DNA of 64,000 nucleotides from Minisyncoccota bacterium (GTDB taxonomy: Bacteria; Patescibacteriota; Minisyncoccia; Phycocordibacterales; JACRKE01). The stretch covers positions 609,768 to 673,767 of the forward strand of contig JBAZWG010000001.1 of NCBI GenBank assembly GCA_041660505.1, given 5' to 3'. How positions within the stretch are numbered: the first letter of the stretch is position 1; the number at the start of each line of letters is the position of its first letter. The notes below the pieces were generated by a model that was not told the origin of the DNA, did not search any database, and was given only the letters and a program-made list of their open reading frames with translations. Position numbers and translations under genes: made by a program. This document shows positions 5,323-59,699 of this stretch, piece by piece.

Positions 5323-5405
5323 AAACGAAACAGCCAGCTCCCATGAAAAATCAGGAACTGGCTGTCCGGCTTGATAGGCAAAAAACTTGAGTCGACGGGA
5401 ATCTG

Positions 5406-6953
5406 TCAGACCGTCGACGGATACTTCTGCTCCACGTCTCGATCGTGGAGTTGTTTGATGATTTCTTCGATCGCCCCATACTGCTCGGGTGAGACCGTCG
5501 AGACGTTCGGGGTTATGATCAGGGGCTCCTCGCACGTTTCGTGGTAGCCCCAATCTGGGTGTACCCCGAACTTCTGCTTCAACGACCGGAAGGCCGCCAC
5601 CGTGAACTTCCCGATTATCCATCGGGCAATGTCCTCGATGTTCTGGTTCTTCCGAAAGCTGAACTGCGGGTACTGCGTCGTGAGCTCTAGGATGAAGTCG
5701 CCCGGCGTCCGTGTTCTCGTCTGCCCGAGCTGGCGAGCGCACGACCAGATCTTCGCAATCTTCAAGTTCTGGTCCCTTTTGCCGACCATTCGGCGAATGA
5801 GGACCAGATAGTAGATCCCGATCTGAACAACCCGATTGTACGTCGGGGTGCTGAACGACACACCCTTGTCTTCCGCCACCTGCTTCACCTCGCGGTGCAG
5901 GATCTTGTTCGTGTGGTAGACGTGCTTCCAGTAACGGAAGGTGTCCACCCCGAACATTGTCCTGGCCCGGCCTGCTGCGTGGATGATGCCGTTACAGCAG
6001 GAGAGGAATCCCTCCGGAGTGAAGAAGAGTGCGTGCTTCGTGAGAAGCGCGTGGTTCTGGTCGATATCCCTACAGTTCATGTAGTGGACGATGTCCCAGA
6101 TCTTGAGCTTTTCCACGCCGTCCGCGTCGACGCCGAGCTCGGCCGCAACCACCCAGATGTTCGTCACCTGGGGGCCGCAGACTATGTCCTTGTCGGTGAG
6201 GGGCAGTTCGGCCCAGAGGATTCGCTCAACGAGCCTGATGGAAATGGCTTTCAGTTCCTCTTCCGACAGCCACTCTGGTGGCGGAATAACCCTGAGCACG
6301 ATCAAGTAGACATAGATCTTCAAAAACAGCCTTGCGACTCCTCCTTTGTATCCAGTCTGCTTGACCTTGAAGCGGGCCGTTTCGTCCGATTCTCCCTTCT
6401 TGCGAGTGGGGAAGCGGATGTCGACCACCGCCGTTTCGATCGCCTCCCTCATCTCCTTGTTGGGGATCTGGGGGATGCTGTCGACGACCAGCTTGGTCGG
6501 TACCTCGCGGTACGTTCCAAACTTGATCTCCTCTTCTGGAACGACAACGACAGAGAGCCCCTTGACCTGCTCGATGACCTTCTTGGCGAAGGCCTCTTCA
6601 GGTTTGTCGGTGCTTTCCTCTTCTTCCTCCGAAGGCATCGCCGGCGTCTTCAGGCCGGAGTCGTGTGCCATTTCCCGAAGAAGGTTGAACGAGCAACTCA
6701 TGATCCTTCGGATCTCTTCCTGGATCTCGGTGGGGAGATTGCAGGCCCGCATATCCCGGAGGACAATGCGGATGAGACAGAGAAAGCGTGCGAACAACCC
6801 GAAGGTGTTCCGCGCCTTCTTCATCCCGTCAACGATGATCTCCTTGTACTCGTCAAACTTGTGGACGAGCTTCCAGCGCGTTTCGTCTGGATAGATGTAT
6901 CGTCGTTCCGAGTCCATTTCTACCTGATTAACCTCTGTTTCCGTGGTTCCCAT
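5406..6953 (-). CDS. hypothetical protein (515 aa), GC-rich
   Basis: Long ORF with codon-biased GC-rich composition and no recognised motif; GGGAAC hexamer repeats at its start codon. Confidence 0.6.
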   Translation of the reverse strand: MGTTETEVNQVEMDSERRYIYPDETRWKLVHKFDEYKEIIVDGMKKARNTFGLFARFLCLIRIVLRDMRACNLPTEIQEEIRRIMSCSFNLLREMAHDSGLKTPAMPSEEEEESTDKPEEAFAKKVIEQVKGLSVVVVPEEEIKFGTYREVPTKLVVDSIPQIPNKEMREAIETAVVDIRFPTRKKGESDETARFKVKQTGYKGGVARLFLKIYVYLIVLRVIPPPEWLSEEELKAISIRLVERILWAELPLTDKDIVCGPQVTNIWVVAAELGVDADGVEKLKIWDIVHYMNCRDIDQNHALLTKHALFFTPEGFLSCCNGIIHAAGRARTMFGVDTFRYWKHVYHTNKILHREVKQVAEDKGVSFSTPTYNRVVQIGIYYLVLIRRMVGKRDQNLKIAKIWSCARQLGQTRTRTPGDFILELTTQYPQFSFRKNQNIEDIARWIIGKFTVAAFRSLKQKFGVHPDWGYHETCEEPLIITPNVSTVSPEQYGAIEEIIKQLHDRDVEQKYPSTV

Positions 6954-7090
6954 GGTTCCCTCCTAGGTTCCCGGTTCCCGTTCCCGTATTCCTTTTTTGC
7001 CTATTTATTTGCCAAAGACCGATACACTGCCTATTTTTAGGCTAGGTTGACATGCTAGCATAAATTAGAGCTGTTTCCCAGAGAAATTAT

Positions 7091-7119
7091 TTGCATAATC
7101 GTCAAATTAGTGCTATTAT
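7091..7119 (+). promoter_or_regulatory. promoter TTGCAT-N17-TATTAT (extended TGc -10) for rnc
   Basis: -35 at 7091-7096 and -10 at 7114-7119 preceded by TGC; the RBS GGAAGG precedes the ATG at 7172. Confidence 0.5.
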
Positions 7120-7171
7120 ACAAAGTAATATTCGATTCCAGAAACGCTGTTTGAAAAAAGGAAGGTGATTA

Positions 7172-7870
7172 ATGTCCGAAACCAGAGAAGAGTTGCAGGT
7201 GCGGCTCGGCATCAAGTTCAATAATCCAGAGTTGCTGGCCGAGGCCCTTCGGCACAAGTCAGTCTCGCCACTCGGCAAGAAAAACAAACCGCAACCGCCG
7301 TATGAACGACTCGAATTCTTCGGCGACGCTGTGATTGACTACGTCGTGAGCAAGCGCCTTTTCCGGCGAAGCCCGCCACTGTCTCAAGGGCGCATGACCC
7401 AGGCGTTCACGAGCCTCGCTTCGCGTATGGCGCTTGGTGAGCTGGCAGAGGAAATAGACCTCTTCCCTCACATCGAGTTCTGCCCTGGCTTTGGCGACAA
7501 CATGTCTATCGAGTTGAGACATAATGTCGTCGGGGACGTCTATGAGGCTCTCGTCGGTGCCATCCACGAGGACCAGGGCTTCGAGACTGCTGAGAATTTC
7601 GTCGAACGCACGGCCATGGCGAAACTCGATGAACTGCTCGCCGGCAAGAACCTTCTCGACCACAAGAACCAGCTTTCTCGGTTCTTGCAGGGTCGTCATC
7701 ACAAGAGAGTCTACCCAGAGTACCAGCTCATCGGGCGTAAGTCTGATGGCGTCTACGTCTCTCAAGTGAGTCACGACGGCAAGAACCTCGGCCAAGGCGA
7801 AGGCAAGACCCAGACCGCCTCAGAGCTCAATGCCGCCAAGGAGGCGCTCGAGATTCTCAAGAAGCGGTAG
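7172..7870 (+). CDS. rnc: ribonuclease III
   Basis: RNase III signature ERLEFFGDAV; DVYEALVGAI; C-terminal dsRBD-like region. Confidence 0.85.
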   Translation: MSETREELQVRLGIKFNNPELLAEALRHKSVSPLGKKNKPQPPYERLEFFGDAVIDYVVSKRLFRRSPPLSQGRMTQAFTSLASRMALGELAEEIDLFPHIEFCPGFGDNMSIELRHNVVGDVYEALVGAIHEDQGFETAENFVERTAMAKLDELLAGKNLLDHKNQLSRFLQGRHHKRVYPEYQLIGRKSDGVYVSQVSHDGKNLGQGEGKTQTASELNAAKEALEILKKR

Positions 7871-7957
7871 CGGATTCACATCCGCTCGGAAATCTACACG
7901 ATTCGTTCGTGGGAAAACATCCGGGTGGGTGTTTTCTTTTTCCTATAAAAAAATTAT

Positions 7958-7986
7958 TTGCTGTTAAGTTTTGCCTGTGTTATAAT
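7958..7986 (+). promoter_or_regulatory. promoter TTGCTG-N17-TATAAT
   Basis: Consensus spacing; sits upstream of the small basic ORF, which has RBS GGAAGGAG. Confidence 0.5.
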
Positions 7987-8075
7987 CATGAACTTCGCAA
8001 ACGCGAGGTGCTCAAAGTACGGCACCCGCGTCCGCGGAGTGTTATGTTCTTTGAGCTGAATGGAAGGAGAATGCC

Positions 8076-8294
8076 ATGTCTCTCACTCAACGGGAGTTCA
8101 GGAAGAACCTCGTCAAGGCCAAGAAGGCCAAGAGGATTCGGAAAATCAAGGAGAAGAGGCGCGCTTTGCGCGCTAAGAATGGCCAGCCGTCGCCGAATGG
8201 CGTGAAGCCTGCACGGGTGTCGCTCCCGCACATGAGCGACACCCTGCCTGTGCCGGCGGCCATGTTGGCTCAGCCGGCCCAGTCCGACCAGTGA
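8076..8294 (+). CDS. small Lys/Arg-rich basic protein (hypothetical)
   Basis: 72-aa ORF with a good RBS, followed by a hairpin plus T-run terminator at about 8307-8400. Confidence 0.5.
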   Translation: MSLTQREFRKNLVKAKKAKRIRKIKEKRRALRAKNGQPSPNGVKPARVSLPHMSDTLPVPAAMLAQPAQSDQ

Positions 8295-8306
8295 CCTTCC
8301 TAGTTC

Positions 8307-8400
8307 AGCAGTTCGCACCCCCGGGTGATTTTAATCTCGCGACTCACAGCGCGGGAGAGGGACACCGGGGGTGTTTCTTTTTTCTCCGGAATTTTCAAGA
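8307..8400 (+). terminator. intrinsic terminator (GCACCCCCGGGTG...CACCGGGGGTG plus T-run)
   Basis: Long GC stem followed by TTTCTTTTTTCT. Confidence 0.55.
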
Positions 8401-8546
8401 TTAGTCTTTTTCCGAAATTTGTTTTCTTATTTTTAAAACCGTTAGCGCGTTACTTTTTTTGTGTTAGACTCCGCATGATACAGAGACCAACTACTGAAAC
8501 AGACACGCGCCTTTGAACGGTGCATTTGACAAGGAGGAATGACAGC

Positions 8547-9404
8547 ATGAGCAATGGAACGTTGGTTGATCCAGTGAGTCCAGAAGAGTACCACCGGGCG
8601 AGGCAGAAGTTGCAAGAATTCTTTACCAAGAAGGGTCTCACCTGGGCGGTCGCTCAGCAGAGGCTCTCAATTCTCTCGGCCTGCGAGAACCATCTCTCCA
8701 TCGCGCTCCACGCATTTGCCGGCCAGACCTGGCCACTCCATCAGACGAACCAGATGGAGTTGGAAAAGATGCTCTTGGAGAACCAGGGGTCGACGGGCTA
8801 TTTCTGCGACACGACCTCGTATCGCGAGGAACCGACCCCCAAGAAGGGCAGGCACAACCTGATCTTCCCTATGGTGGAGTTCGAGCTCCCAGGGAACTTC
8901 GAGGTGCTCCTGGCCTTCCTGCAGGATCTCGTCCAGCACCTCGGATTCGTCAAGGCGCCGGCCCCCGTCGTTGACTACCGCGACTACGCCAAGAAGTGCG
9001 GAGTCGAGGAGCTCGGCGATGAACACGAAACCCAACTCTTCCGCGAGCTCGGTCCGGTCGTGATGCTCGTCGACTTCCCGATGAGCACCTCGCCGTTCTG
9101 GAACATGCGGCTCGACGGCGGTCCCGGCGAAAAGATCGCACGAAAGTGCGACGTCATCGTCTGCGGACAGGAGACGATCGGTAGCGCCGAGCGCTCTTGC
9201 GATCCCGAGCAGATGCGGAAGTCCTTCCGTGCAGTCTCTGGTGGAGACTACGCGAGGACGCTCTTCGCACGCTTCTGCAGCGGGCGGGTCCTGGAGGAGT
9301 TGGAAGACTTCCTCTCGCTTCCGTTCTTCCCGCGCTGTGGCGGAGGAATCGGGATGACCCGGCTCATCCGGGCTACACGGATGGTCGGCCTCATTGACAA
9401 GTAG
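8547..9404 (+). CDS. class II aminoacyl-tRNA synthetase catalytic-core paralog (EpmA/AsnA-like, no anticodon-binding domain)
   Basis: Class IIb motif 2 YREEPTPKKGRHNLIFPMVEFEL and motif 3 GGGIGMTRL; about 285 aa, so the catalytic core only; RBS AAGGAGG 8 nt before the ATG at 8547. Confidence 0.65.
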   Translation: MSNGTLVDPVSPEEYHRARQKLQEFFTKKGLTWAVAQQRLSILSACENHLSIALHAFAGQTWPLHQTNQMELEKMLLENQGSTGYFCDTTSYREEPTPKKGRHNLIFPMVEFELPGNFEVLLAFLQDLVQHLGFVKAPAPVVDYRDYAKKCGVEELGDEHETQLFRELGPVVMLVDFPMSTSPFWNMRLDGGPGEKIARKCDVIVCGQETIGSAERSCDPEQMRKSFRAVSGGDYARTLFARFCSGRVLEELEDFLSLPFFPRCGGGIGMTRLIRATRMVGLIDK

Positions 9405-9420
9405 TACGGTCAACCTAGAA

Positions 9421-9455
9421 CCGGCTCCCTTCGTTCGCGAAGGGAGCCGGTTTCG
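9421..9455 (+). terminator. hairpin terminator CCGGCTCCCTTC-GTTCGC-GAAGGGAGCCGG followed by TTTCG
   Basis: Perfect 12-bp stem right after the aaRS-like gene. Confidence 0.55.
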
Positions 9456-9468
9456 CGTCTGCCTAGCA

Positions 9469-9512
9469 TTAGAAGGTTCAACCTTTTTGATGCTTAAGGT
9501 TGAACCTTCTTG
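9469..9512. repeat. AAGGTTCAACCTT / AAGGTTGAACCTT double-palindrome hairpin element (family copy a)
   Basis: Arms AGAAGGTTCAACCTT and AAGGTTGAACCTTCT are perfect reverse complements. Confidence 0.7.
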
Positions 9513-9583
9513 TGCGTTATAAAACGAAAAGGGGATCGCGACCTTGCGGTTGCGACCCCCTTTTGAACCAGATGAAAGCAGGA

Positions 9584-10189
9584 TTACTTCTTGCCCTTGC
9601 CGACGTCCATACTCACGGGGATGTCGGCTTCGCAGAACGAGCACTCCTCCGATGCCCATGAGTCGAGAGTGATGTTCACTAGCGACTCAAGCCTCGGCGC
9701 GCCAATATCGAAAGCGGTGACGCCTCCGCGATTGCAGATAGCGCCCACGCCCACGACCTCGCCGCCGATGGCGCGGACGACCTCGACGACCTTCTTCACC
9801 GAGCCGCCGGTCGTCAGGACATCCTCGACGACGAGCACTGTCTTGCCAGCCACGATCTTGTCGTAACCGCGCTTCACTACGAACCCGCCGTCGGCCGACT
9901 TCTCGGCGTAGACACTCATTGCGTCTGAGTGTACGAGCTCCGAGAGTTGATAGGCCACCCATTGGGAGAGGATGAGCCCGCCCATCGCGGGCCCGACGAC
10001 CACCTGCGGTCGTTCTGCCAAGAAGCGGCCGGCCAGGTACAGGCAGAGCTCGCCCGTCAACCTAGGATGCACGTAAATCGCATCCTTGTTGATGTACCTG
10101 TTGCCGTGCCGGCCACTTGTGTAGACGAAGTGGCCCTCGAGTAAGGCACCCACTGCCTTGATCTTCTCCATGACACTGACTTCTTTCAT
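9584..10189 (-). CDS. pyrE: orotate phosphoribosyltransferase
   Basis: PRTase motif VLVVEDVLTTGGS; start set at MKEVSVMEKIKAV, since the ORF track start is further upstream. Confidence 0.78.
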   Translation of the reverse strand: MKEVSVMEKIKAVGALLEGHFVYTSGRHGNRYINKDAIYVHPRLTGELCLYLAGRFLAERPQVVVGPAMGGLILSQWVAYQLSELVHSDAMSVYAEKSADGGFVVKRGYDKIVAGKTVLVVEDVLTTGGSVKKVVEVVRAIGGEVVGVGAICNRGGVTAFDIGAPRLESLVNITLDSWASEECSFCEADIPVSMDVGKGKK

Positions 10190-10205
10190 GAGACCTCCTT
10201 GCGGG

Positions 10206-11021
10206 TCATGATCGGTATCGGTTGATTGCGTCATGCAGTCGCTGCGTCTCGCGTCGCGCCGCCTCTGCGAAGTTCTGTCCGCCACCGGCGAAGATGATGC
10301 TCCGTGAGGCGGCAATGATCATGCCTTGACCCCGCGAGTCTTTGCCAGCAGCGACGGTCGCTTCGAGATCTCCGCCTTGCGCGCCGATACCCGGGACGAG
10401 GATTGGCATGTCGCCGACAATCTTGCGCACGGCGCGCAGTTCGTCGGGATATGTTGCGCCGACGACCACGGCACAGTTGCCGTTCTCGTTCCATGCGCAT
10501 GCAACGTTCAGGGCGACCACTCGGTAGAGCGGCACGCCGCCGACGAGCAGATTCTGGAATTCGCCGGCGCCGACATTTGACGACCTGCAGACGATTATAC
10601 AACCCTTGTCCTTCTGGGCGAGGAATGGCTCGAGAGCCTCCTTGCCGAAGTAAGGGTTCAGGGTGACGGCGTCGGCGTGCAGGTATCCGAACGCTTGCTC
10701 GACGTAGCCGACATTGGTGTTGCCAATGTCGGCGTACTTGGCGTCCAAGATGATCGGCACCTCGGGGGCGATGGCATTCGCCTCCGAGACGGTGTGATAG
10801 AGCGCGAGGATGCCCTCGATGCCTTGTGCCACGTAGAAGGCCAAATTGACTTTGTACGCGCAGACGAGGTCGCTGGTGTGCTCGATGATGGCGCGGTTGA
10901 ACGCGCGAATCCTATCGAGCTTCGACGGGTACTTGACCTCCGCCGGGATCTTGCCGAGCTCGCTGTCGAGTCCGACGCAGACGCTCTTGCCTTGCTCCCA
11001 CCGAGCCTTGAGCATCTCCAT
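10206..11021 (-). CDS. pyrF: orotidine 5'-phosphate decarboxylase (long type 2 form)
   Basis: ILDAKYADIGNT matches the OMPdecase DxKxxDIxNT motif; about 270 aa from MEMLKAR. Confidence 0.75.
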   Translation of the reverse strand: MEMLKARWEQGKSVCVGLDSELGKIPAEVKYPSKLDRIRAFNRAIIEHTSDLVCAYKVNLAFYVAQGIEGILALYHTVSEANAIAPEVPIILDAKYADIGNTNVGYVEQAFGYLHADAVTLNPYFGKEALEPFLAQKDKGCIIVCRSSNVGAGEFQNLLVGGVPLYRVVALNVACAWNENGNCAVVVGATYPDELRAVRKIVGDMPILVPGIGAQGGDLEATVAAGKDSRGQGMIIAASRSIIFAGGGQNFAEAARRETQRLHDAINRYRS

Positions 11022-11164
11022 GAAGTTTCTGGTCTTCAAATTCTGCCTCGCTTTCACTTGGTTCAATGAACAGTATGAGCCGGACTATCCGGCTCAAAAT
11101 CTCCTTGACACTATCAAAAATATAGTTAGAAATCAAGCTCGAAAATTTGCGGGAAATTATTTTT

Positions 11165-11210
11165 AAAACAAAAACAGGATGCCGGCTACAGAGAGCTTGC
11201 ATCCTGTTCG
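11165..11210 (-). terminator. intrinsic terminator after pyrD (CAGGATGC..GCATCCTG plus TTTTTGTTTT on the minus strand)
   Basis: 8-bp stem, T-run on the minus strand. Confidence 0.5.
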
Positions 11211-11230
11211 AGCGAACATTACCGGACGAG

Positions 11231-12124
11231 TCATTCGTCGGTGAGTTCGCTAAGGATCGATGAGAATATGGTCTCGCCCCGCTCCAGATAAGCGGTGGCG
11301 ATTTGCACGGCCGAGGCACCGGCCAAGATGTACTCGCGCACGCCGGTGCTATGGATAATGCCGCCGACGCCTATGAGTTGCTGGGTGCTCGGCAGGAGCG
11401 CACGCAGTTGCCTGACCTGCCCCAGGCCGATAGGCTTTAGTGCCGGGCCGGCCATGCCCGCGAGTCCTCCGGCTGGAGTGATTCGTGGCGCTTCACCATT
11501 GAGGCCGAAGGCGTTGGGAAAGGTGTTGACGGTTGTGACCGCCTTCACCAACTTCGACTTGCCGATCACCTCCGCCACTTGCGCAAGTTGGAAAGGGTCG
11601 GAGTAAGGCGAAACCTTACACGCGATCTTCGCCTCGGCTCCGACCCACGTTTCTACCTGTCGCAAGATGTTCGCAACAAGCACGGGGTCGAAGCAGGCAA
11701 TCCGCTTCTGCATCCCGCCCTGCCAGACGTTGGGACAGCCGAGGTTGAGCTCGACCATGTCGGCCCCGCCGGCGAAGGCGATCTTAGACATTATCGCGTA
11801 CTCCTCGGCCGAGAAGCCGGCGATACTCACGAAGAGTGGCTTGCCATGCGCATGTGCCTCCGCCACCATCGCGGGCAGTTTGAGCCCATAGTACTCTATC
11901 CCTCTATTCGGCAAGCCGAGAGAGTTTAGCGAGTAATCTGACTCTACCCAGTACACGTTGCCACCGTTGCCTTGACGAGGCTCCATGGTGATAGAGCCGA
12001 CCATGATGGCCGCGGTGGCAGAACGGGCGAGCTGGCTTACCTCCTCCAGCAGCCGGCAGGTACCCGCCGCGTTCATGAGCGGGTGCTCAAGCGGGATACC
12101 GGCGAGCGTAGTTTCAAAGTTCAT
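11231..12124 (-). CDS. pyrD: dihydroorotate dehydrogenase, class 1
   Basis: ELNLGCPN motif and TIM-barrel FMN-binding profile; RBS AAGGAGG before the ATG. Confidence 0.82.
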   Translation of the reverse strand: MNFETTLAGIPLEHPLMNAAGTCRLLEEVSQLARSATAAIMVGSITMEPRQGNGGNVYWVESDYSLNSLGLPNRGIEYYGLKLPAMVAEAHAHGKPLFVSIAGFSAEEYAIMSKIAFAGGADMVELNLGCPNVWQGGMQKRIACFDPVLVANILRQVETWVGAEAKIACKVSPYSDPFQLAQVAEVIGKSKLVKAVTTVNTFPNAFGLNGEAPRITPAGGLAGMAGPALKPIGLGQVRQLRALLPSTQQLIGVGGIIHSTGVREYILAGASAVQIATAYLERGETIFSSILSELTDE

Positions 12125-12217
12125 GTGACCTCCTTAAGGTCTTTTTTTGTGCTCGTTATTCTCTTTATGCTGTATGTAAGTTAACAAATATGACCTGTTT
12201 TATCAACACAAAAAAAC

Positions 12218-24316: not shown

Positions 24317-24380
24317 TTCTCGCCTAGGCCGGTCTGTCATACGGCGGCCTTTTTTGCTATACTGTCGTCGTCAGAATTAT

Positions 24381-25154
24381 ATGAAAAAGTGGGAAATAGT
24401 CGTGGAAAAGTTTCTTGATGAATGGCGGGACAAGCCGGAGGTTTTAGGCGCTATTGTCGGAGGCAGTCATGCGGTGGGGAATGAGACGGACCTTTCGGAC
24501 ATTGATCTTCAGGTGGTTTTGAAAAACGATATTCCGTGGAGAGACCGAGGGCTTACATGCATCGATGGAATTATTATTGAATATTTCCTTGTACCTATAG
24601 GAAACTATAAAATCTATTCCGAGCAGGGAATCAACAGAGACCAGATCAAAGTAGATGCCAGAATATTTTCGACCGGAAAGGTTGTATTAGACAAAGACGG
24701 CAGTATGGCAGAACTGGTCAAAGAAGCTTATGAGAAATTGAAGAAAGAATTTCCCGTCTATCCGGACGAGGCAAAAGCCTTGATGCAAAAACACCTTTGG
24801 GACACGCATGATCATTTGGAAGAATACACTAAATATCCCTCACCGATGTTCGGTATCCTATACGGCATTTTACTGAATGATATTCTAGAATTCTACGCGC
24901 GAGTTACTCGCACGGAAAGATTGCCTTTAGAAAGAGCCCATAAATTGATTACAAATGAAGTCTATAGAGAAAGATATGGATTCCCAAGAGTATCAGACAA
25001 AAAATTCGAGACACTTCTACTGTCGGCGATAGAAAAGCAAGATTTCGCAAATATTGATGCGCTCTATACCTATGCCCAAGAACTCGGTGGGGGCTTCGAC
25101 CAGTGTAATTGGTATTTAAGACGGAAATCACTGGTGCAAGTGGTGAATAAATAA
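24381..25154 (+). CDS. Pol-beta-type nucleotidyltransferase domain protein (ANT/KNTase-like fold)
   Basis: LGAIVGGSHAVGNETDLSDIDLQVV is the GS...D.D nucleotidyltransferase motif. Confidence 0.58.
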   Translation: MKKWEIVVEKFLDEWRDKPEVLGAIVGGSHAVGNETDLSDIDLQVVLKNDIPWRDRGLTCIDGIIIEYFLVPIGNYKIYSEQGINRDQIKVDARIFSTGKVVLDKDGSMAELVKEAYEKLKKEFPVYPDEAKALMQKHLWDTHDHLEEYTKYPSPMFGILYGILLNDILEFYARVTRTERLPLERAHKLITNEVYRERYGFPRVSDKKFETLLLSAIEKQDFANIDALYTYAQELGGGFDQCNWYLRRKSLVQVVNK

Positions 25155-25176
25155 TAATGATTGATATTGCGCCGGA

Positions 25177-26112
25177 TTGCTAGTATTATGTCTGATATTC
25201 ATGTCTTGGTTACTCATTGCCCTTATTGGGCCTATACTCTACGCTGTCGCTAATCATATCGATAAGCATGTTATCGAGCGATACTTGAAGGGAGGGGTCG
25301 CAGGCGCACTTATAATATTTTCATCCCTCTTCAGTATCGTGGCGTTGCCGGTGCTTACTTACTTCGAGCCGTCGGTACTTGATGTTACTCTTTTGCAGGG
25401 GGTTTACCTTGCTCTGAACGGCATGCTCGTCGTGTTTGCCTTCCTCGCTTATTTCTACGCGCTCACTTATGATGAAGCATCATATGTTGTCCCATGGTAT
25501 CAGACCATACCGATCTTCGGATTCATTCTCGGCTATTTTATATTAGGCGAGAAAATTTCCCAGACTCAAGCTCTGGCGTCCGCATTCATTCTCGCCGGTG
25601 CAATAATTCTATCGCTCGACTTCGGCGGCAAAAAGATGCACTTTAAACGCGAGGTTGCTTTCCTTATGCTCGGCGCCTCGCTACTTTATGCAATCAATGG
25701 AGTTGTATTTAAAGTTATTGCAACCGACGCCGGTTTCTGGGTCAGCGTATTCTGGGGGCTCGTGGGCAAAGTTATCCTTGGCTTCGCCTTCCTCGCCTTC
25801 ATTCCCTCATATCGCAATCAATATTTATACTTGTTACGACATAGCGGTTTGACAGTACTGGGCTTTAATTCTTTAAGCGAATTTCTCTCGATGATTGCAG
25901 AAGCGGCCATGCAATATGTGACCCTGCTTGTACCCGTCGGGATAGCGCTTCTTGCCAACTCGTTCCAGCCATTCTTCGTTCTTATTATCGGTAGTCTCAT
26001 CGCATTCTTCTGGCCGAGCAAAGAGGCCGAATCGCTCCGAGCCGGCAAAATGACCCAAAAAGTTGTAGGCATAGCCATTATGGTCCTGGGGAGCTATCTG
26101 ATCGGGGTATAA
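25177..26112 (+). CDS. DMT/EamA-like multi-TM transporter
   Basis: About 10 predicted TM helices in a two-fold repeat architecture. Confidence 0.5.
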   Translation: MLVLCLIFMSWLLIALIGPILYAVANHIDKHVIERYLKGGVAGALIIFSSLFSIVALPVLTYFEPSVLDVTLLQGVYLALNGMLVVFAFLAYFYALTYDEASYVVPWYQTIPIFGFILGYFILGEKISQTQALASAFILAGAIILSLDFGGKKMHFKREVAFLMLGASLLYAINGVVFKVIATDAGFWVSVFWGLVGKVILGFAFLAFIPSYRNQYLYLLRHSGLTVLGFNSLSEFLSMIAEAAMQYVTLLVPVGIALLANSFQPFFVLIIGSLIAFFWPSKEAESLRAGKMTQKVVGIAIMVLGSYLIGV

Positions 26113-26160
26113 AAGATTTTATTTGCGATGATTTTTAAATCCTAGTATACTGTCCTCACT

Positions 26161-26550
26161 ATGCATTTTGGCGAACATCTGATGATTGACGGTTATGGTG
26201 GCGACACGGAACTTTTGAATTCCGAGGCACTCGTCCGTAAAATTCTGACAGAATTACCAGTGCAGTTAGGGATGCAAACTTTGGCGGCACCCGTAATAAT
26301 TTCTGCTCCCGACAACGATAAAAAAGACCCCGGTGGCTGGAGCGGCTTCGTCGTTATTGCCGAGAGTCATGTGAGTATTCATACTTTTCCCAAGCGCGGT
26401 TTCGTCAGTATCGATGTGTACACCTGTAGGAATGGACTCGATATTGAAACTATCAAAGCCTATTTCACCGGCTCATTCGCGCTCGCCGAACTCGAGACCA
26501 ACTTCGTCTTACGCGGTAAGAAGTATCCGCAACAAAACATTCATGCATGA
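26161..26550 (+). CDS. speH: S-adenosylmethionine decarboxylase proenzyme (small pyruvoyl type)
   Basis: Self-cleavage motif AESHVSIHTFPK...SIDVYTCRNG matches ESHxxIHTWPE...FTCG; 129 aa. Confidence 0.78.
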   Translation: MHFGEHLMIDGYGGDTELLNSEALVRKILTELPVQLGMQTLAAPVIISAPDNDKKDPGGWSGFVVIAESHVSIHTFPKRGFVSIDVYTCRNGLDIETIKAYFTGSFALAELETNFVLRGKKYPQQNIHA

Positions 26551-27479
26551 CAGAGCTTCCAGCCTTTCCCGAATTTAAGCAGATAGAGCTGGCAGACCGA
26601 TCGTCGGTAGAAAAACTGACAGAAAAATTTCCGCCATATTCAGACTTTCATTTCTCCAGTTTGTATTCTTGGGACATCAACAAAAAAATGGGATTATCCG
26701 TGCTGAACGGCAATCTGGTGGTTTTGTTCAATGATTATATTTCCGGAAGTTTTTTCCTGACATTTATTGGAGATTCAAAGATTTCTGAAACAGCCTCCAT
26801 ACTGCTAGATTTTTCAAAACAGAATGGTTATGAAAGCTCCCTAAAACTTATTCCCGAAGAAATGGCAAAAGTATTGTCGGAAACAGGATTCTCTGTAGAG
26901 CCCGATGCCGGAGCTCATGATTACATCTATTCGATTGAACGTCTCGCAAACATGGAAGAATGGAGTAAGAGCACACAAAAGAAGCAGATCAGAAAATTTA
27001 TGGATACGAACCCTCAGTACTCCGCTCGGATATTACCCACTAAGGAATTAGACAAACGAGAATACCTCGAACTTTTTAAACAATGGGCAACCAACAAAAA
27101 TCTCCTTGATCACACGGAGTTGAACGAGTATAAAGCCTTTAGCCGGCTTCTGGCCGAAAACAATGGCGATGTTGAAATGTTGTCTATATATAGCGACGAG
27201 TCGTGTAAAAAAATGATCGGATTTACATCGTTTGAAACGATATCCGATGACTACGCCATAGCGCATTTTTCTAAAGCCGATATTAAGCATCACGCCGCAA
27301 TTTACTGCGTTTTGATATGGGAAGAGGCGAAATATCTTCAGAAAAAGGGTATAAAGCACTACAATTGGGAACAGGACCTGGATATACCTGGACTACGCAC
27401 TTTCAAAATGTCCTACAAGCCGGAATTTTTCTTAAAGCAGTACACGGTGAGTTTACCTGTGTTGTCGTCACAATCGTAG
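26547..27479 (+). CDS. hypothetical 310-aa protein translationally coupled to speH; AT-rich; not spermidine synthase
   Basis: ATGA overlap with the speH stop; no SpeE GGGDGG motif. Confidence 0.55.
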   Translation: MTELPAFPEFKQIELADRSSVEKLTEKFPPYSDFHFSSLYSWDINKKMGLSVLNGNLVVLFNDYISGSFFLTFIGDSKISETASILLDFSKQNGYESSLKLIPEEMAKVLSETGFSVEPDAGAHDYIYSIERLANMEEWSKSTQKKQIRKFMDTNPQYSARILPTKELDKREYLELFKQWATNKNLLDHTELNEYKAFSRLLAENNGDVEMLSIYSDESCKKMIGFTSFETISDDYAIAHFSKADIKHHAAIYCVLIWEEAKYLQKKGIKHYNWEQDLDIPGLRTFKMSYKPEFFLKQYTVSLPVLSSQS

Positions 27480-27504
27480 CCAACCTCGTATTAAATAGCC
27501 CCAA

Positions 27505-28617
27505 ATGATAATCATTGACCTGAAATTTCTTGTTAGAAAACGAGCGAATTTATTTTTTCTTATCGACAATCTCTCTTTTCCTATTGATTCAATGCACCGA
27601 GATTACAACCGTGAGTGGCTGGAGCTTTTCGGACAACTGTCGGATAGCGAGAATAATGCGCTCGAAAAATACAGGTTGTTTAAAAAGTCTATCTGGGACA
27701 GAGGGGGAGGCAAACTACTTACTCGTTTTGAATCTGCCTTTTATCAATTTTCAGAATTAGACCTGAGAGAAGAAAAATTATTACTAAATATTCTTACCGA
27801 AGAAGAGTCTGGCGAATTAGATAAAATCTTTAGCTATTTTCAAGGCAGGTTTGAACTAATGTGGGAAAATTATTGTCGGATTCTCTCGAATAATCTTATC
27901 TTTCTTGAAAACGATTTTGCTTCCGTTCAACAAGTGTTTAGTGAGACACTCTCTGTAATTGGCGGGTTGTATGGGGTTAATAATTTTAACGATCGAATCG
28001 AAGTCTTTCTTATGATGCGACCGGCCACCGGGTTTTCCGGAGGGAGAATGATTAGCCGAAAGCCCCCTATAGTAATGATCGAGAGCGGGATTTCTAAACC
28101 ACAAGATCTTGACCAAATAAATCATCTGCGGCTATTACTTTTTCATGAGCTCACTCACGCCTGTTTTGAAAACGAACGTTTTTTAAAATTTCTCGGTGAA
28201 TATATCGAAAAGAAAACTCCACTCACTCACTTTCTTGAGAAATACCCCTCAACAAAGACTCCAGCTTTGGCCACCCGCCGAGCAATGCGAGAAATGATTA
28301 TTAACTCCATTGAATATAGTACGTACGTTCGAGGTCGGCTTGAACAAGGTTGTGAGATAAATTCCAATAATGGGGAAACTATTCTGAACGAAATTCGAAA
28401 CAAAAAATCTTTTAAACTCGCGAAAGGCACCCAAGAGAAACGCTCTATTATTTTGACCAGCGGAGAGGATACTTACCGGTATGTCGCGTGGAAGCTAGAA
28501 GGAATTGTGCGACCATATCTTGATAATAAAAAGCGCATAGATGATGAATTCTTAGACGGTGTTTATGATGTCTTAAAAGCATTTCCGGATAACCTTCTTG
28601 ATGATTTGAAATTGTGA
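27505..28617 (+). CDS. hypothetical protein with HExxH motif (LLFHELTHACF), possible metallopeptidase
   Basis: Single HELTH motif; AT-rich; converges on the rSAM gene end. Confidence 0.5.
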   Translation: MIIIDLKFLVRKRANLFFLIDNLSFPIDSMHRDYNREWLELFGQLSDSENNALEKYRLFKKSIWDRGGGKLLTRFESAFYQFSELDLREEKLLLNILTEEESGELDKIFSYFQGRFELMWENYCRILSNNLIFLENDFASVQQVFSETLSVIGGLYGVNNFNDRIEVFLMMRPATGFSGGRMISRKPPIVMIESGISKPQDLDQINHLRLLLFHELTHACFENERFLKFLGEYIEKKTPLTHFLEKYPSTKTPALATRRAMREMIINSIEYSTYVRGRLEQGCEINSNNGETILNEIRNKKSFKLAKGTQEKRSIILTSGEDTYRYVAWKLEGIVRPYLDNKKRIDDEFLDGVYDVLKAFPDNLLDDLKL

Positions 28618-28674
28618 ACAAAAAGGCTGGCTCCCTAGAAACCCAGGAACCAGCCAAACTCCTCATCCTTTCTG

Positions 28675-29931
28675 TTAGTGATCAAGGATGTGTCTAAGGA
28701 GGTTCTTCGAAAATTCCCTGATTGCTTCGCATCGATAGCTCCTCTCTTTCCAGAAAGCTTCTGGTGAGACTTCGGCTTTATTGGCAGGGCAGTCTCCCTT
28801 ACAACCAAATTGAGCGAAGCAGTTCTGGCAGTCGGGAATACTCCTGACATTGAATTGCCGGAGGTGTCTGTATCGGTCTGCATCGAACACGAAAGCCTGT
28901 TGTTTTGGATCGTACTGTCCGAAACAAAATAGCAAAGCAGCGTCGTTTGCGCCCACACCGGCCATTCTATGGCAGGAAACAACTCGGCCGTCATAGGTGA
29001 TTGTGAAGTTCTTGCCAGCGGCTCCACAAAAAGCGCTACCCGTTGTCCGCCACGCCTGTGCAAGCGATGTTCTTATGCTAACGTTCAACGTTTTGGCAAC
29101 TTCAGACGCCTCAGTGAATTTCCCTAAGAATAGGGAGTCCACTGGTGGTTGAGCAAGCGGATTGACTTTCGCTCTCCCCATCGCGAAAAGTGGTTCGTAG
29201 GTTTGGACGCAACCAGGGAATCGTTCCCCGAAAAATCTCACCATTTCAGTCAGACGGTGAACGCTTGCTGCGGAAATGGTGGAACGGAACCTTAGTTTGT
29301 GCGGTGCAATCTGATAGATTTCCGTTGCCGCATCGAACACGCGGTCGAAACTCTTGCCCCGTTGCGCATCGTGGATATCCTTGGGCCCATCCACGGATAG
29401 TAGTATGTTGTCCATGTTCTCGGCGAGCCACCTGGCCTTTTGAGACGACATACAACCGTTGGTAGTGATTCCTGCCGAGCTCTCGAGACCCTGTTCTGAC
29501 GCTTGCGCGTGGAGGTACTGTACCGCTCCGACCAAGGTAGTCCAAGGTAGTGTCGGTTCACCGCCGAACATCCATGCACCGACCTTGCGCTTTCCTGAGT
29601 CTCTCGCAGATTTTATGAGATGGTCGACAGTAGCTCGGACAACCTCAGTCGGCATCGTTATGGTTTCTGTCGGCCGCGGGACGTAACCTCCAAAGCAGTA
29701 GATGCACCCAAGCTTGCACTGGTTAGTGAGCATCAAGGTTGCACCCGTAAAGAGGTAGTTCGGTTCTTCCGCTACCTCTTTTTGTATCGTCGAAGTCGGG
29801 GCGGTTACAAAATCTGGGATTGTTTCTGCAACATTCGCTTCGACCCGATACACCTTTCGCATTGTGGGAACGTAAATAATGACGCTATCTCCGTCTTGAA
29901 TCTTGAAGAGTCGGTGTTGAACAAGTTCCAT
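28675..29931 (-). CDS. radical SAM enzyme with C-terminal SPASM domain (RiPP peptide maturase-like)
   Basis: CxxxCxxC at LTNQCKLGCIYCFG; SPASM CX2CX5CX3C at CQNCFAQFGCKGDC plus flanking Cys; about 65-aa N-terminal extension; RBS ACGGAGG 6 nt before the ATG. Confidence 0.85.
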   Translation of the reverse strand: MELVQHRLFKIQDGDSVIIYVPTMRKVYRVEANVAETIPDFVTAPTSTIQKEVAEEPNYLFTGATLMLTNQCKLGCIYCFGGYVPRPTETITMPTEVVRATVDHLIKSARDSGKRKVGAWMFGGEPTLPWTTLVGAVQYLHAQASEQGLESSAGITTNGCMSSQKARWLAENMDNILLSVDGPKDIHDAQRGKSFDRVFDAATEIYQIAPHKLRFRSTISAASVHRLTEMVRFFGERFPGCVQTYEPLFAMGRAKVNPLAQPPVDSLFLGKFTEASEVAKTLNVSIRTSLAQAWRTTGSAFCGAAGKNFTITYDGRVVSCHRMAGVGANDAALLFCFGQYDPKQQAFVFDADRYRHLRQFNVRSIPDCQNCFAQFGCKGDCPANKAEVSPEAFWKERSYRCEAIREFSKNLLRHILDH

Positions 29932-29951
29932 GGATAACCTCCGTTATTATG

Positions 29952-29988
29952 GATCGAGGGTGGAAGCTATACGCTTCCACCCTCGATC
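29952..29988 (-). promoter_or_regulatory. perfect 16-bp stem-loop (GATCGAGGGTGGAAGC-TATA-CGCTTCCACCCTCGATC) between precursor ORF and maturase
   Basis: No U-run on the transcribed strand, so more likely an attenuator or processing/stability hairpin than a full terminator. Confidence 0.6.
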
Positions 29989-30014
29989 TTCTTCGAGTCA
30001 ACGACAGTTAGTTG

Positions 30015-30161
30015 TTACTCGCCGCAGCTGTCTCCATCTCCCCAGCAACCGTCTTGGTCCGAGTCGCATGCACTGCAACTTCGTGACGTGTCGGATGGAA
30101 GCGATGCGCTTGCGCAGGCAAGCCCTTCCAGCTGCTCCAGGGTCAAAGTCGGCTCTCTCAT
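30015..30161 (-). CDS. unannotated 48-aa Cys/Asp-rich RiPP precursor peptide candidate (ranthipeptide/SCIFF-like)
   Basis: Minus strand reads CGAAAGGAGGTGCCTATG...TAA. It translates to MREPTLTLEQLEGLACASASLPSDTSRSCSACDSDQDGCWGDGDSCGE. RBS AAGGAGG lies 5 nt upstream. Five Cys with nearby Asp/Ser/Thr at the C-terminus, helical acidic leader. Below the 60-aa ORF-track cut-off. Confidence 0.6.
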   Translation of the reverse strand: MREPTLTLEQLEGLACASASLPSDTSRSCSACDSDQDGCWGDGDSCGE

Positions 30162-30200
30162 AGGCACCTCCTTTCGTTGTCGAAGATCATTGTCAAGCTG

Positions 30201-30231
30201 ATTCTACCCCCCCCCTATTGCAATTTGTCAA
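30201..30231 (-). promoter_or_regulatory. promoter for the precursor peptide: TTGACA-N19-TAGAAT with a G9 (C9 on plus) tract in the spacer
   Basis: Reverse complement of plus 30201-30231; C9 run at 30207-30215; the 19-nt spacer is suboptimal; direct repeats TTGTCAAG at 30190-30197 and 30225-30232. Confidence 0.45.
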
Positions 30232-30419: not shown

Positions 30420-31373
30420 ATGCCTAGTTGTATCTTCGGTATTATATTCATTTTATTCGACAGTCGTTCGACAAGATTTTCAGGTGAGCGACACGACTCC
30501 CGCAACCGAATAATTACATATATTCCCATGCAATCAGATCAAAATCAATATTGGTCAATGACAGAAGGTGTCTTTAACTGTCTCATTGACACCGAGCGAA
30601 CCGAAGCCTTTCAAAAAGCTATACGAAATACGGTAAAAAGGGGTGATATTGTTGTCGATCTCGGGTCTGGCTCCGGGGTCATGGCTATGTTCGCCGCCGA
30701 CGCAGGTGCGGCAAAGGTATACGCCGTTGAAATAGATTTGCGCAATATAAAAACGCTCCGAGATACGTTTGCAAAAAATGGATATGCAGACGTGATTACA
30801 GTTATCGAGGGGGATGCCACAAGTGTTGTGTTGCCAGAAAAAGTTGATGTGATTATCGCAGAGATGGTTGCGACTGGCCTGATTGAAGAACTACAAATTC
30901 CAGCGATGAATAATGCGCTCATGTATAAAAAGGAGAGAACACGCGTTGTTCTAAGCCGAATTGATAACTATATTGATCTCGTTTTTAATAATCCTGTATT
31001 TTATAATCACACGTTCAATATCTTCCGTTACGAATATCCGGACATCGAGCAGCTACGATCAAATAGTTTTTCTGACAGGATTATATATTCTTCTATAGAC
31101 TTCAACCATGTATGCAGTGAGAGGAATGTGGATGCAACATACGAAGTCTCGATTACTAACGACGGGGTGATTAATGCGCTCAGAATAAGCACCGACACTT
31201 TTTTTGCTGACAATTCAACACTTGGTCCTACCTATGCCTACGCATATCCGTTAATTCTCCCCATCCCCGAATCCAAGGTTAAAAAAGGAGATATTTTTTC
31301 GGTAAAAGTGTCCTACGAGCTCTGCGGAGGTTTCGATGGGTTCTCATACTCGGTAACTAAAAAAAATGTTTAG
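30420..31373 (+). CDS. PRMT-like class I SAM-dependent methyltransferase
   Basis: DTERTEAFQKAI...DIVVDLGSGSGVMAMFAADAGAAKVYAVE (motif I and post-I) and VDVIIAEMV match the protein arginine methyltransferase family pattern; alternative start at 30528; stop overlaps the HK start. Confidence 0.6.
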   Translation: MPSCIFGIIFILFDSRSTRFSGERHDSRNRIITYIPMQSDQNQYWSMTEGVFNCLIDTERTEAFQKAIRNTVKRGDIVVDLGSGSGVMAMFAADAGAAKVYAVEIDLRNIKTLRDTFAKNGYADVITVIEGDATSVVLPEKVDVIIAEMVATGLIEELQIPAMNNALMYKKERTRVVLSRIDNYIDLVFNNPVFYNHTFNIFRYEYPDIEQLRSNSFSDRIIYSSIDFNHVCSERNVDATYEVSITNDGVINALRISTDTFFADNSTLGPTYAYAYPLILPIPESKVKKGDIFSVKVSYELCGGFDGFSYSVTKKNV

Positions 31374-33075
31374 CAACTACTATTGCCCGGGAAATCTCTC
31401 CGTGCTCGGGGCCTTTGATTTCAGTTATGCCCCCACGCTCATTTTTTATGCTTACATACCAATAATTCTTGTCTCGATATTTTTCGGATTATTGCTTATT
31501 TTCAGAGATAAGTTTTCTATTCAGGGAAAGCTTATCTTTCTGCTTTCACTCTTCTTTTCGTTTTGGAATCTTAATGTTATTGCCGAGTGGATAACCGTCC
31601 CCGTCAACCTAAATCATTTTTTTTGGCAACTAACCATGCTGTTTGAGATGCCGATTCCGCTACTCGCGATATACCTCACTCTTGTTTTTATCTACAAAAA
31701 GGATATTTCGAGCAAGTTAAAAATATTACTGACTATATTTTTCCTGCCGGTCCCACTGCTTCTGGCGACCGTCTATAATATCGGCGTATTTGATGTGCAA
31801 AATTGTCAGCCAGCAGTCGGTTGGTTAACGTATTACGTCTATGCGATCGAGATTTTTTCCATTCTATGGATTGTTATAGCCGCGTATAGAAAATACCAGA
31901 TCGAATCAAGCCCCTCCGAAAAAAAACAAATTCTTCTGATGGTTTCTGGTATATCACTATTTCTCCTTACCTTTTCTTTGTCGAATATTCTCGGCGAGTG
32001 GACTCAATTTTATCAAATCAACCTTATCGGTCCTATTGGTATGGTGGTGTTTCTGGCGCTCATGACTTACCTTATCGTCAAGTTCAAGACCTTCAATATC
32101 AAGCTTATTGGTACACAGGCTTTGGTGTGGGCGCTTATTATACTTATCGGGTCGGAGTTTTTCTTCATCCAAACAAACGTCAATAGAATTCTCACTGCCG
32201 TTACCCTTGTAATATCGGCTTGGATGGGTCTCATAATTGTGAGAAGCGTAAAGAAGGAAATTGAGGCTCGTGAGATTATCGAAGGTATGGCGAAGAAACT
32301 TGAGGGGGTTAACACCGAGCTCGAGGGTGCCAATGCCAAGCTCAAGGTACTTGACCAACAGAAGTCGGAGTTTGTCTCTATTGCTTCGCATCAGTTGCGG
32401 TCGCCGCTCACAGTCATTAAGGGCTATTTATCCATGATGATCGAGGGCGAGCCGGAGTTGGCCGACCTTAAGGCGGGGACTATCACGCCGAAGGGGGTGG
32501 AGGTCATGAACACGATGTTCCAATCGACCAACCGCTTGGCGCATATTATTGAAGACTTCTTGAACGTCTCGCGCATCGAGCAGGGCAAGATGAAATACGA
32601 GATGAGCGACTTCGACATCCGCCAGATGGCGCGGGAAGTGGTGGGTGAATTCCAAGCCGAGGTGGGCGAGAGGAAACTGACGCTTATCTGCACCGACAAG
32701 TCGCCAAACGCGAGCTATATGGTCTACGCCGACGCGGGCAAGCTCCGCCAAGTCATCGGCAATATTATTGACAACTCTATCAAGTACACGCCGCAGGGCG
32801 GGATCACTGTCTATCTTGAACGTCTGGCGGATAGTACTAGACTTTCGGTGAAGGACACCGGCATCGGCATCTCGGCCGAGAACCTTAAGAATTTGTTCCA
32901 GAAGTTCTCTCGCGCATCGAACGGCGGTAAGGTCAACGTGACAGGATCCGGCCTCGGCCTCTTCGTCGCTGTCGAAATTATGAAGGCGCATAAAGGCAAG
33001 CTGTGGGCAGAGTCGGATGGAGAAGGCAAGGGCTCAACTTTCGTGATAGAACTTCCAATTAAAAAACGGAATTAA
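31366..33075 (+). CDS. sensor histidine kinase with about 8-TM N-terminal membrane sensor domain; no response regulator adjacent
   Basis: H-box SIASHQLRSPLTVIKGY; HATPase_c N/G boxes (IIDNSIKYT, GSGLGLFVAVEIM); start overlaps the MTase stop. Confidence 0.85.
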   Translation: MFSNYYCPGNLSVLGAFDFSYAPTLIFYAYIPIILVSIFFGLLLIFRDKFSIQGKLIFLLSLFFSFWNLNVIAEWITVPVNLNHFFWQLTMLFEMPIPLLAIYLTLVFIYKKDISSKLKILLTIFFLPVPLLLATVYNIGVFDVQNCQPAVGWLTYYVYAIEIFSILWIVIAAYRKYQIESSPSEKKQILLMVSGISLFLLTFSLSNILGEWTQFYQINLIGPIGMVVFLALMTYLIVKFKTFNIKLIGTQALVWALIILIGSEFFFIQTNVNRILTAVTLVISAWMGLIIVRSVKKEIEAREIIEGMAKKLEGVNTELEGANAKLKVLDQQKSEFVSIASHQLRSPLTVIKGYLSMMIEGEPELADLKAGTITPKGVEVMNTMFQSTNRLAHIIEDFLNVSRIEQGKMKYEMSDFDIRQMAREVVGEFQAEVGERKLTLICTDKSPNASYMVYADAGKLRQVIGNIIDNSIKYTPQGGITVYLERLADSTRLSVKDTGIGISAENLKNLFQKFSRASNGGKVNVTGSGLGLFVAVEIMKAHKGKLWAESDGEGKGSTFVIELPIKKRN

Positions 33076-58285: not shown

Positions 58286-58322
58286 ATAACCGACTAAGAA
58301 CTTTGACAGACAGGGAAAGGAG

Positions 58323-59363: not shown

Positions 59364-59375
59364 CCTTTCCCCGTG

Positions 59376-59404
59376 TGCCCACCCCGACGAAGTGTCGGGG
59401 TGGG
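59376..59404 (+). terminator. hairpin CCCACCCCGACGAAGTGTCGGGGTGGGCGAGG
   Basis: 11-bp perfect stem; near-identical to the element at 60843. Confidence 0.5.
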
Positions 59405-59699
59405 CGAGGCAAGCGAGTGAGAGCCTGATAGATTAAGAACCTATCTTAATCTCGCTCAAATAACAAAACAGATCACGCAAAATACGTGGTCTTTTTTGTT
59501 TCTAATATACATCATTTCTGTGCTATAGCAGAGCGGTGATGTATGTGTCGGAGGCGAGACCTCGGACAATAAAGAGATTCTGAAACTGGTTTAATCAGGT
59601 CGACATTTGGCCATAAATATGGTAGATGTAAAGGCCGTACTCGCTGTTTTGACATAATAATACTGACTGAAACTATTTAACATAAAACACTACAGAGCT

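Follow-up and report, generated by a model that had tools for sequence, protein, structure and literature searches.

The window analysed here is a stretch of 64,000 nucleotides (nt) from a Minisyncoccota bacterium (contig JBAZWG010000001.1, positions 609,768 to 673,767). On its minus strand, a small open reading frame (ORF) of 48 codons (30015..30161; ATG at 30161-30159, TAA at 30017-30015) lies 83 nt upstream of a gene on the same strand for a radical S-adenosylmethionine (SAM)/SPASM peptide maturase of 418 amino acids (aa) (28675..29931; ATG at 29931). A plus-strand gene (27505..28617) is convergent with the maturase gene and encodes a conserved 370-aa protein with an HExxH motif. Comparison of these genes with their relatives suggests that the small ORF probably encodes the precursor peptide of the adjacent enzyme, and that enzyme, peptide and HExxH protein probably form a three-gene cassette. 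The arrangement has the marks of a radical SAM/SPASM-dependent pathway to a peptide synthesized on ribosomes and modified post-translationally (RiPP), namely conserved adjacency of the genes, a precursor with leader and core, and an enzyme with CX3CX2C and seven-cysteine SPASM motifs.

Translation of the minus-strand ORF (30161-30015) gives MREPTLTLEQLEGLACASASLPSDTSRSCSACDSDQDGCWGDGDSCGE, and the strand reads GAAAGGAGGTGCCT-ATG into the start. A program-made ORF list gives an in-frame GTG at 30167 as the start codon; because this GTG falls within the Shine–Dalgarno (SD) sequence, we take the ATG at 30161 to be the start. The peptide consists of a leader of about 22 residues (TLTLEQLEGLA...LP), a variable linker (residues 23-31) and a conserved core, CDSDQDGCWGDGDSCGE (residues 32-48).

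The peptide ORF is uncalled in every public record of the contig, whose gene calls leave the interval empty, and no gene with this product is on public record. The contig is also obtained by assembly of run SRR18595301. A word-based search with the peptide returned no candidate, the peptide being absent from the protein collection, and among 1.84 billion representatives phmmer recovered three true small homologues and no more (P0037, P0049 and P0053). The 20 other phmmer matches, which included long multi-stretch proteins, were rejected as compositional or motif matches; two that were inspected (P0050 and P0054) are repeat proteins with a common C-W-G motif, which we take to be RCC1-like. NCBIfam and Pfam scans with ten peptides of the family returned nothing relevant at E ≤ 10, and the window peptide did not match the SCIFF model at the same threshold. 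No account of this family, or of such a system in Patescibacteria, turned up in full-text literature searches. These results support the view that the peptide belongs to an unannotated, new precursor family that would serve an uncharacterized clade of radical SAM/SPASM maturases, found here mainly in bacteria of the Candidate Phyla Radiation (CPR).

Peptides and maturases in related loci

DNA around relatives of the maturase was fetched and then scanned for small ORFs. Ten further distinct loci were found to pair a homologous small ORF with a radical SAM gene whose product is 40-69% identical. In eight of them (L002, L004, L006, L009, L010, L011, L089 and L091) the small ORF lies directly upstream of the radical SAM gene. 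In L001 it sits beyond the HExxH gene, and in L169 it follows a gene for an M16 peptidase, the order being radical SAM, M16 peptidase, precursor. The homologous peptides are MKRSTLTIEELEALATAAVALPSVQSAECPACETDGCFGDPSSCSEKYCRPND in L004, METLTLEELEALAITSAVLPTNSQPRGCDVDGCFGDKDSCGETSCRPND in L002 and MTLNQLEALLGTGIPLQLQNVSFDRCECSDNPDGCCGDPDSCGDCTCALDG in L089 and L090, and the conserved ends read ...NPDGCCGDTDSCGEYPPNTY in L001, ...CECEDDGCFGDKDSCGESGCSSV in L009, ...CEDDCDCNGDPDSCGEGPCPIG in L091 and ...TDCDSDGCWGDRDSCGEPSCDSVG in L169. The homologues in L006, in L010 (a Saccharibacteria metagenome-assembled genome (MAG)) and in L011 (a Parcubacteria MAG) are more divergent members.

Alignment of these peptides (A3) revealed the layout described above, with a conserved leader (TLTLEELEALA; pattern L-x-L-E-x-L-E-x-L-A), a variable linker and a conserved core, C-x(2-6)-DGC-x-GD-x-x-SC-G-E. 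No variation is seen at L11, C32, C39 or D42, and conservation is 90% at D37, G41, S45 and C46; C-x-G-D occurs in nine of ten peptides and C-x-[ED] in eight. The original prediction had read the ORF as a precursor peptide with GCWGDGDSCGE as its likely modified core, and this region is indeed the most conserved part of the peptide. That reading is now supported on two further counts, since the cysteine and aspartate positions are conserved and homologous small ORFs adjoin radical SAM/SPASM genes in relatives.

Could the ORF be a chance open frame, with the conserved element being non-coding or part of an antisense ORF of 77 aa (29930-30163, plus)? The ORF is short and unannotated, and the antisense frame is open in the window; but the sense frame alone is open in all ten homologues, and because the antisense frames, like every other frame, carry stops in most of them, the 77-aa ORF is spurious. 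The homologous peptides are 31-60% identical and their GC content at third codon positions (GC3) ranges from 0.23 to 0.63, and such wide differences in DNA indicate that leader and core are conserved at the level of protein. The SD sequence and start codon are also correctly spaced, and for practical purposes the chance-frame explanation is refuted. The ratio of non-synonymous to synonymous substitutions between near-identical pairs of loci rested on too few differences to inform this comparison.

We also noted several irregularities in individual loci. In L001, a second copy of the first ~17 precursor codons, with part of the region upstream of them, is joined in frame to the N terminus of the radical SAM gene (4923-5063 and 8440-8510); the duplicated stretches read MPSAIELKKLESLAMGE... 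and MPPTIKLEKLESLAMGE..., which points to a local rearrangement. In L169 (1305-2589), and also in L170 and L171, a frameshift divides the radical SAM orthologue, which is called as two genes of 136 and 293 aa. The split occurs in three separate assemblies, and the gene is either a pseudogene or the product of an assembly error that recurs. A second radical SAM/SPASM gene in L169 (6055-7155) was considered and set aside, being unrelated to the window maturase beyond the superfamily.

Translation and transcription signals of the cassette

The peptide gene is preceded by AAGGAGG (30167..30173, minus; extended GAAAGGAGGTG), which lies 5 nt (TGCCT) before the ATG, a seven-of-seven match at exactly the spacing that had been claimed. 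AAGGAGG occurs 18 times in the window, compared with 7.1 ± 3.0 times in shuffled sequence, and only five copies have a long ORF starting 4-9 nt after them (8531+, 10200-, 12135-, 30173- and 58317+). Using a generic anti-SD tail, we computed a duplex energy of -18.3 kcal/mol upstream of the peptide gene; a single other gene in the window, at 58332, matches this value (-18.7 kcal/mol). The peptide gene had been said to carry the strongest ribosome-binding site in the region; this holds within about ±18 kb, the nearest comparable SD sequences being those at 12135 and 58317. The accompanying claim that most genes in the window lack an SD sequence agrees with our counts. Energies of -6 kcal/mol or better were found for 15% of 60 crude genes, taken from longest-ORF starts with uncurated start codons, and for 14% of random positions, which indicates no SD enrichment and no general use of SD sequences in the window.

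The maturase gene has an SD sequence as well (GGAGGT at 29937..29942, minus, 5 nt before the ATG at 29931; -10.7 kcal/mol). In relatives, radical SAM genes are preceded by GAAAGGAGG, and peptide genes by GAAAGGAGGT in L002, L089, L090, L091 and L169. Energies in L002 are -15.1 kcal/mol for the peptide gene and -14.4 kcal/mol for the radical SAM gene, and SD sequences are missing before the L11, NusG and SecE genes next to them. Because SD sequences recur before both genes in relatives, we conclude that a strong SD is conserved with the cassette in genomes that are poor in SD sequences; it belongs to the cassette and not to the peptide gene alone. High translation of the peptide is a reasonable reading of this signal.

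The few genes in the window with strong SD sequences (starts 6953-, 7172+, 10190-, 12124- and 58332+; within 5406-12135 and 58317-60824) are the GC-richest (0.56-0.61), and most other genes have AT-rich upstream regions without an SD. Two modes of translation initiation seem to coexist in this genome. One possibility, which we consider real but doubtful, is that the strong SD was not selected for very high output of the peptide. It may instead be carried by the whole cassette, for example from a donor lineage that uses SD sequences, or it may be required if the GC-rich 5′ regions of the cassette are unable to use the usual SD-independent initiation of the host. The association of SD sequences with GC-rich genes would fit this explanation, as would the SD sequences of the window maturase gene and its relatives and the lack of one before the L001 peptide gene. 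However, the GC content of the maturase gene (0.51) equals the window mean (0.50), which gives no compositional sign of foreign origin, and the SD has been kept across loci whose maturases are only 40-69% identical, which suggests selection. A cassette-carried SD does not contradict a precursor role for the peptide. Foreign origin of the cassette was also rejected on the ground that it is the flanking genes that have low GC content: the genes on either side of the peptide and maturase pair (24354-28617 and 30420-33075) range from 0.39 to 0.47, and include those for the HExxH partner, an LPG_synthase_C-like protein, a PrmA-like methyltransferase and a histidine kinase with seven transmembrane segments.

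Upstream of the peptide gene, a putative sigma-70-like promoter was read from the letters (30201..30231, minus), with TTGACA at 30231-30226, a 19-nt spacer and TAGAAT at 30206-30201. The predicted -10 element ends 39 nt before the peptide ATG. An automated promoter scan that allowed spacers of 16-18 nt missed this element because its spacer is 19 nt. TTGACA-16/17-TAnAAT is found at the corresponding place in L002 (37 nt from the start) and in L001, consistent with a promoter function. Within the spacer of the window promoter is a run of nine G (30207-30215, minus; C9 on the plus strand), and the spacer is thus 19 nt, the optimum being 17. If one or two G were lost, as happens in slipped-strand phase variation, the promoter would improve; the independent assembly L172 also has G9, and the tract thus showed no variation in length.

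Between the peptide stop codon and the maturase start is a stem-loop with a perfect 15-bp stem and a 5-nt loop (29953..29987, minus). The 96-nt intergenic stretch folds at -43.2 kcal/mol (z = -7.0), and none of 200 shuffles was as good. Stem-loops of unrelated sequence follow the peptide stop in L010 (z = -6.1), L009 (-3.6), L169 (-2.7), L091 (-2.6), L004 (-1.8) and L002 (-1.6), that of L169 having a U-run and being a true terminator; L006 has no stem-loop after the peptide stop. In an Rfam scan of the window the sole match was a tRNA at 62-134, with none at the hairpin. RiPP operons commonly have a hairpin that sets an excess of precursor over enzyme, and the window hairpin may likewise act in transcript attenuation or stability. 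A second hairpin, terminator-like (GGCTGG...CCAGCC followed by TTTTT; 28620..28655, minus), lies between the convergent maturase and HExxH genes.

The maturase and its predicted chemistry

The maturase contains the motif C72-x3-C76-x2-C79 and seven SPASM cysteines (C302, C320, C368, C371, C377, C381 and C401), and all ten cluster cysteines are invariant across 11 homologues. Pfam scores for Radical_SAM (39.6 bits) and SPASM (22.4 bits) are both above cut-off, as is that for the NCBIfam SPASM domain (37.2 against 27). The best equivalog is PapB (NF047865; 108.9 bits against a cut-off of 340, 3e-31, residues 63-384), which is also the only full-length hidden Markov model match among peptide maturases of known chemistry. 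The SCIFF maturase model (TIGR03974) matches the N-terminal half only (97.9 bits against 425); QhpD (79.6 against 453, 1.9e-22) is among the next matches, and TIGR04115 scores 39.7 against 350. Since the family cut-offs are not reached, the enzyme falls outside the PapB, SCIFF and QhpD families. An identical protein is on record as a radical SAM protein of a Candidatus Paceibacterota bacterium, and the family is small, with 22 proteins found at E ≤ 0.001 among 5.8 billion clusters.

The enzyme was also compared with solved structures. The closest by sequence is the thioether-forming CteB (phmmer 2.8e-20). CteB was again the best match of an AlphaFold2 model with a predicted local distance difference test score of 84 (5WHY; whole-length Foldseek alignment, template modelling score 0.73), and anSME and ChlB came next. 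No Pfam match to PqqD was found in the maturase.

QhpD, the radical SAM/SPASM enzyme of the QhpC/QhpD pair, forms thioethers between cysteine and aspartate or glutamate in a small polypeptide rich in cysteine and aspartate. PapB likewise joins cysteine to an aspartate or glutamate on its C-terminal side; C-Xn-D is tolerated for n = 0-6, and even residues at the C terminus can be used (PMC9413430, PMC12373016). In the window peptide family, each conserved cysteine has an acidic residue C-terminal to it: C32 with D35/D37, C39-x-G-D42 and C46-x-E/D48. Considering these acidic residues, the likeness of the maturase to PapB and the cysteine-, aspartate- and glutamate-rich small ORFs beside more distant relatives, we lean slightly towards ranthipeptide-type Cys-to-Asp/Glu thioether rings, provided that the ORF is a precursor.

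Several observations weigh against the overall explanation of the cassette, its chemistry included. Similarity to each family of known chemistry is far below its cut-off, and the spacing between C32 and the next conserved aspartate varies from x2 to x6. The repeated C-X3-D motif that defines PapA is absent from the core. Residues 1-60 of the maturase model form five strands and one short helix and do not make a full winged-helix peptide-recognition element. The window hairpin has no U-run and is therefore not a canonical terminator, and no transporter is conserved in the cassette among the loci compared.

The main alternative is that the ORF is the precursor of a radical SAM enzyme with other chemistry, such as α-carbon thioethers of the sactipeptide type, to which the structural class of CteB belongs, anSME-like oxidation of Cys or Ser to formylglycine, or carbon–carbon cross-links. 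The order of the solved structures, CteB and then anSME, would fit such a reading, and anSME families match the maturase over its full length (1e-16); S45 and C46 form a conserved pair, and the low scores count here too, since they apply to every family of known chemistry. We nevertheless consider sactionine-type or other radical SAM chemistry rather unlikely, given that conserved acidic residues stand directly C-terminal to each conserved cysteine, that cores across the wider clade are rich in Cys, Asp and Glu, and that PapB is the best match.

The thioether reading can be set beside four known systems. Like PapA/PapB, which makes freyrasin, the window pair sets a radical SAM/SPASM enzyme beside a short precursor that has a Cys/Asp-rich core after its N-terminal leader. 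Unlike PapA, which has six C-X3-D repeats, the core here has three cysteine-plus-acid units (C-x2-6-D, C-x-G-D and C-x-E), and only C29-x3-D33, with an unconserved C29, fits Cys-X3-Asp/Glu; the precursor also matches no family, the host belongs to the CPR and the cassette includes a gene for an HExxH partner. SCIFF and CteB (TIGR03973/TIGR03974) resemble the window pair in combining a small cysteine-rich peptide with a single radical SAM/SPASM gene, often without a transporter, whereas the leader and core motifs differ. In contrast to the QhpC/QhpD arrangement, the window peptide is a stand-alone 48-mer with a leader, and no dehydrogenase subunit genes lie nearby. Finally, CXXX-repeat and other cysteine-rich radical SAM target peptides (TIGR04115 and related) have a parallel in L098, L017 and L013, among others, where distant maturase relatives (25-30% identity) adjoin peptides with C-x-x-D-C repeats, but the window core is not a regular repeat.

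The HExxH partner and the wider clade

The HExxH protein contains an invariant H214-E-L-T-H218-A-C-F. It matches no Pfam or NCBIfam model, has a putative, weakly zincin-like fold, and a profile of the family found nothing in a sequence search of the PDB. The gene is kept beside the radical SAM gene in the window and in L001, L002, L004, L010 and L011, with HELTHACF unchanged. Four loci that lack it (L089, L091, L009 and L169) have a Peptidase_M16 gene directly after the radical SAM gene. This either-or pattern suggests functional replacement and favours a role in leader removal, making the HExxH protein a candidate leader peptidase. We found no relation by hhalign between the HExxH partner and either the convergent 395-aa gene of L089 or the Peptidase_MA_2 gene of L009.

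HExxH hydroxylases are known in radical SAM RiPP pathways, and the partner could be an α-ketoglutarate- and iron-dependent HExxH tailoring oxygenase that hydroxylates core aspartates; it could also be unrelated to the peptide. We regard both as unlikely when set against the M16 replacement pattern, and the model of the α-ketoglutarate-dependent HExxH hydroxylase family (IPR026337 / TIGR04267) was not matched by the partner.

Based on these comparisons, we propose the following mechanism for a ranthipeptide-type cassette. The near-consensus promoter and very strong SD would drive synthesis of the peptide, and the stem-loop after its stop codon would lower read-through into the enzyme gene or stabilize a short transcript, such that peptide exceeds enzyme. 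The N-terminal leader (TLTLEELEALA...LP) may dock the peptide on the maturase, which, with its SAM cluster and two auxiliary clusters, would join the thiols of C32, C39 and C46 to carbons of acidic residues shortly C-terminal to them. Candidate pairs are C32 with D35 or D37, C39 with D42 and C46 with E48, and the result would be small thioether rings like those of the ranthipeptides made by PapB and QhpD. The HExxH protein would most likely then remove the leader. The chemistry, the ring pattern, the roles of hairpin and peptidase, and the function of the product are inferred. A bolder version of this proposal, which taken as a whole we think quite improbable, is that the cassette represents an undescribed RiPP family mainly of CPR/Patescibacteria, with three very small Cys-to-acid rings in DGC-x-GD-x-x-SC-G-E, a new zincin-like HExxH leader peptidase or tailoring enzyme, phase-variable expression through G9, and a product that acts as a signal or binds metal in episymbiosis.

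CPR/Patescibacteria genomes are small. In one survey, the Patescibacteria genomes were reported to have no biosynthetic gene clusters (PMC11613949). The locus described here holds a complete, conserved peptide-modification cassette whose key gene was missed by every public annotation of the contig. It leaves the general understanding of how radical SAM/SPASM peptide systems work unchanged, as its logic is standard; its value lies in the group of its host, in a gene that had been missed, in an SD specific to the cassette and in the unfamiliar HExxH partner. With a 48-aa peptide and one enzyme, it is a concrete and cheap target for heterologous expression, and the conserved core motif can be used to mine for further members. 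The cassette also gives an uncharacterized HExxH protein family a testable role, and suggests that a perfect SD in an SD-poor genome is a useful flag for unannotated small genes.

Distant relatives of the maturase (25-30% identity) are flanked by one to three small ORFs rich in cysteine, aspartate and glutamate, in L013 (27-155, 1464-1619 and 1649-1915), L017 (4588-4838) and L098 (4575-4865). The leaders of these ORFs differ (SEIIEL..., SEIVF...), their cores contain repeats such as C-x-x-D-C, and the wider clade appears to hold several unannotated precursor families. L007, whose radical SAM protein is 30% identical, has two radical SAM genes and two small ORFs (895-1068 and 5383-5565), both with PNYSIE near the N terminus and with C-x-KGDC-x-x-DC-x-x-NY as core; the locus gives the impression of a distinct system with two enzymes. 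Finally, a SAM-dependent methyltransferase gene diverges from the region upstream of the cassette in both the window (30420-31373, plus) and L001 (3687-4235, minus); the two genes differ in length.
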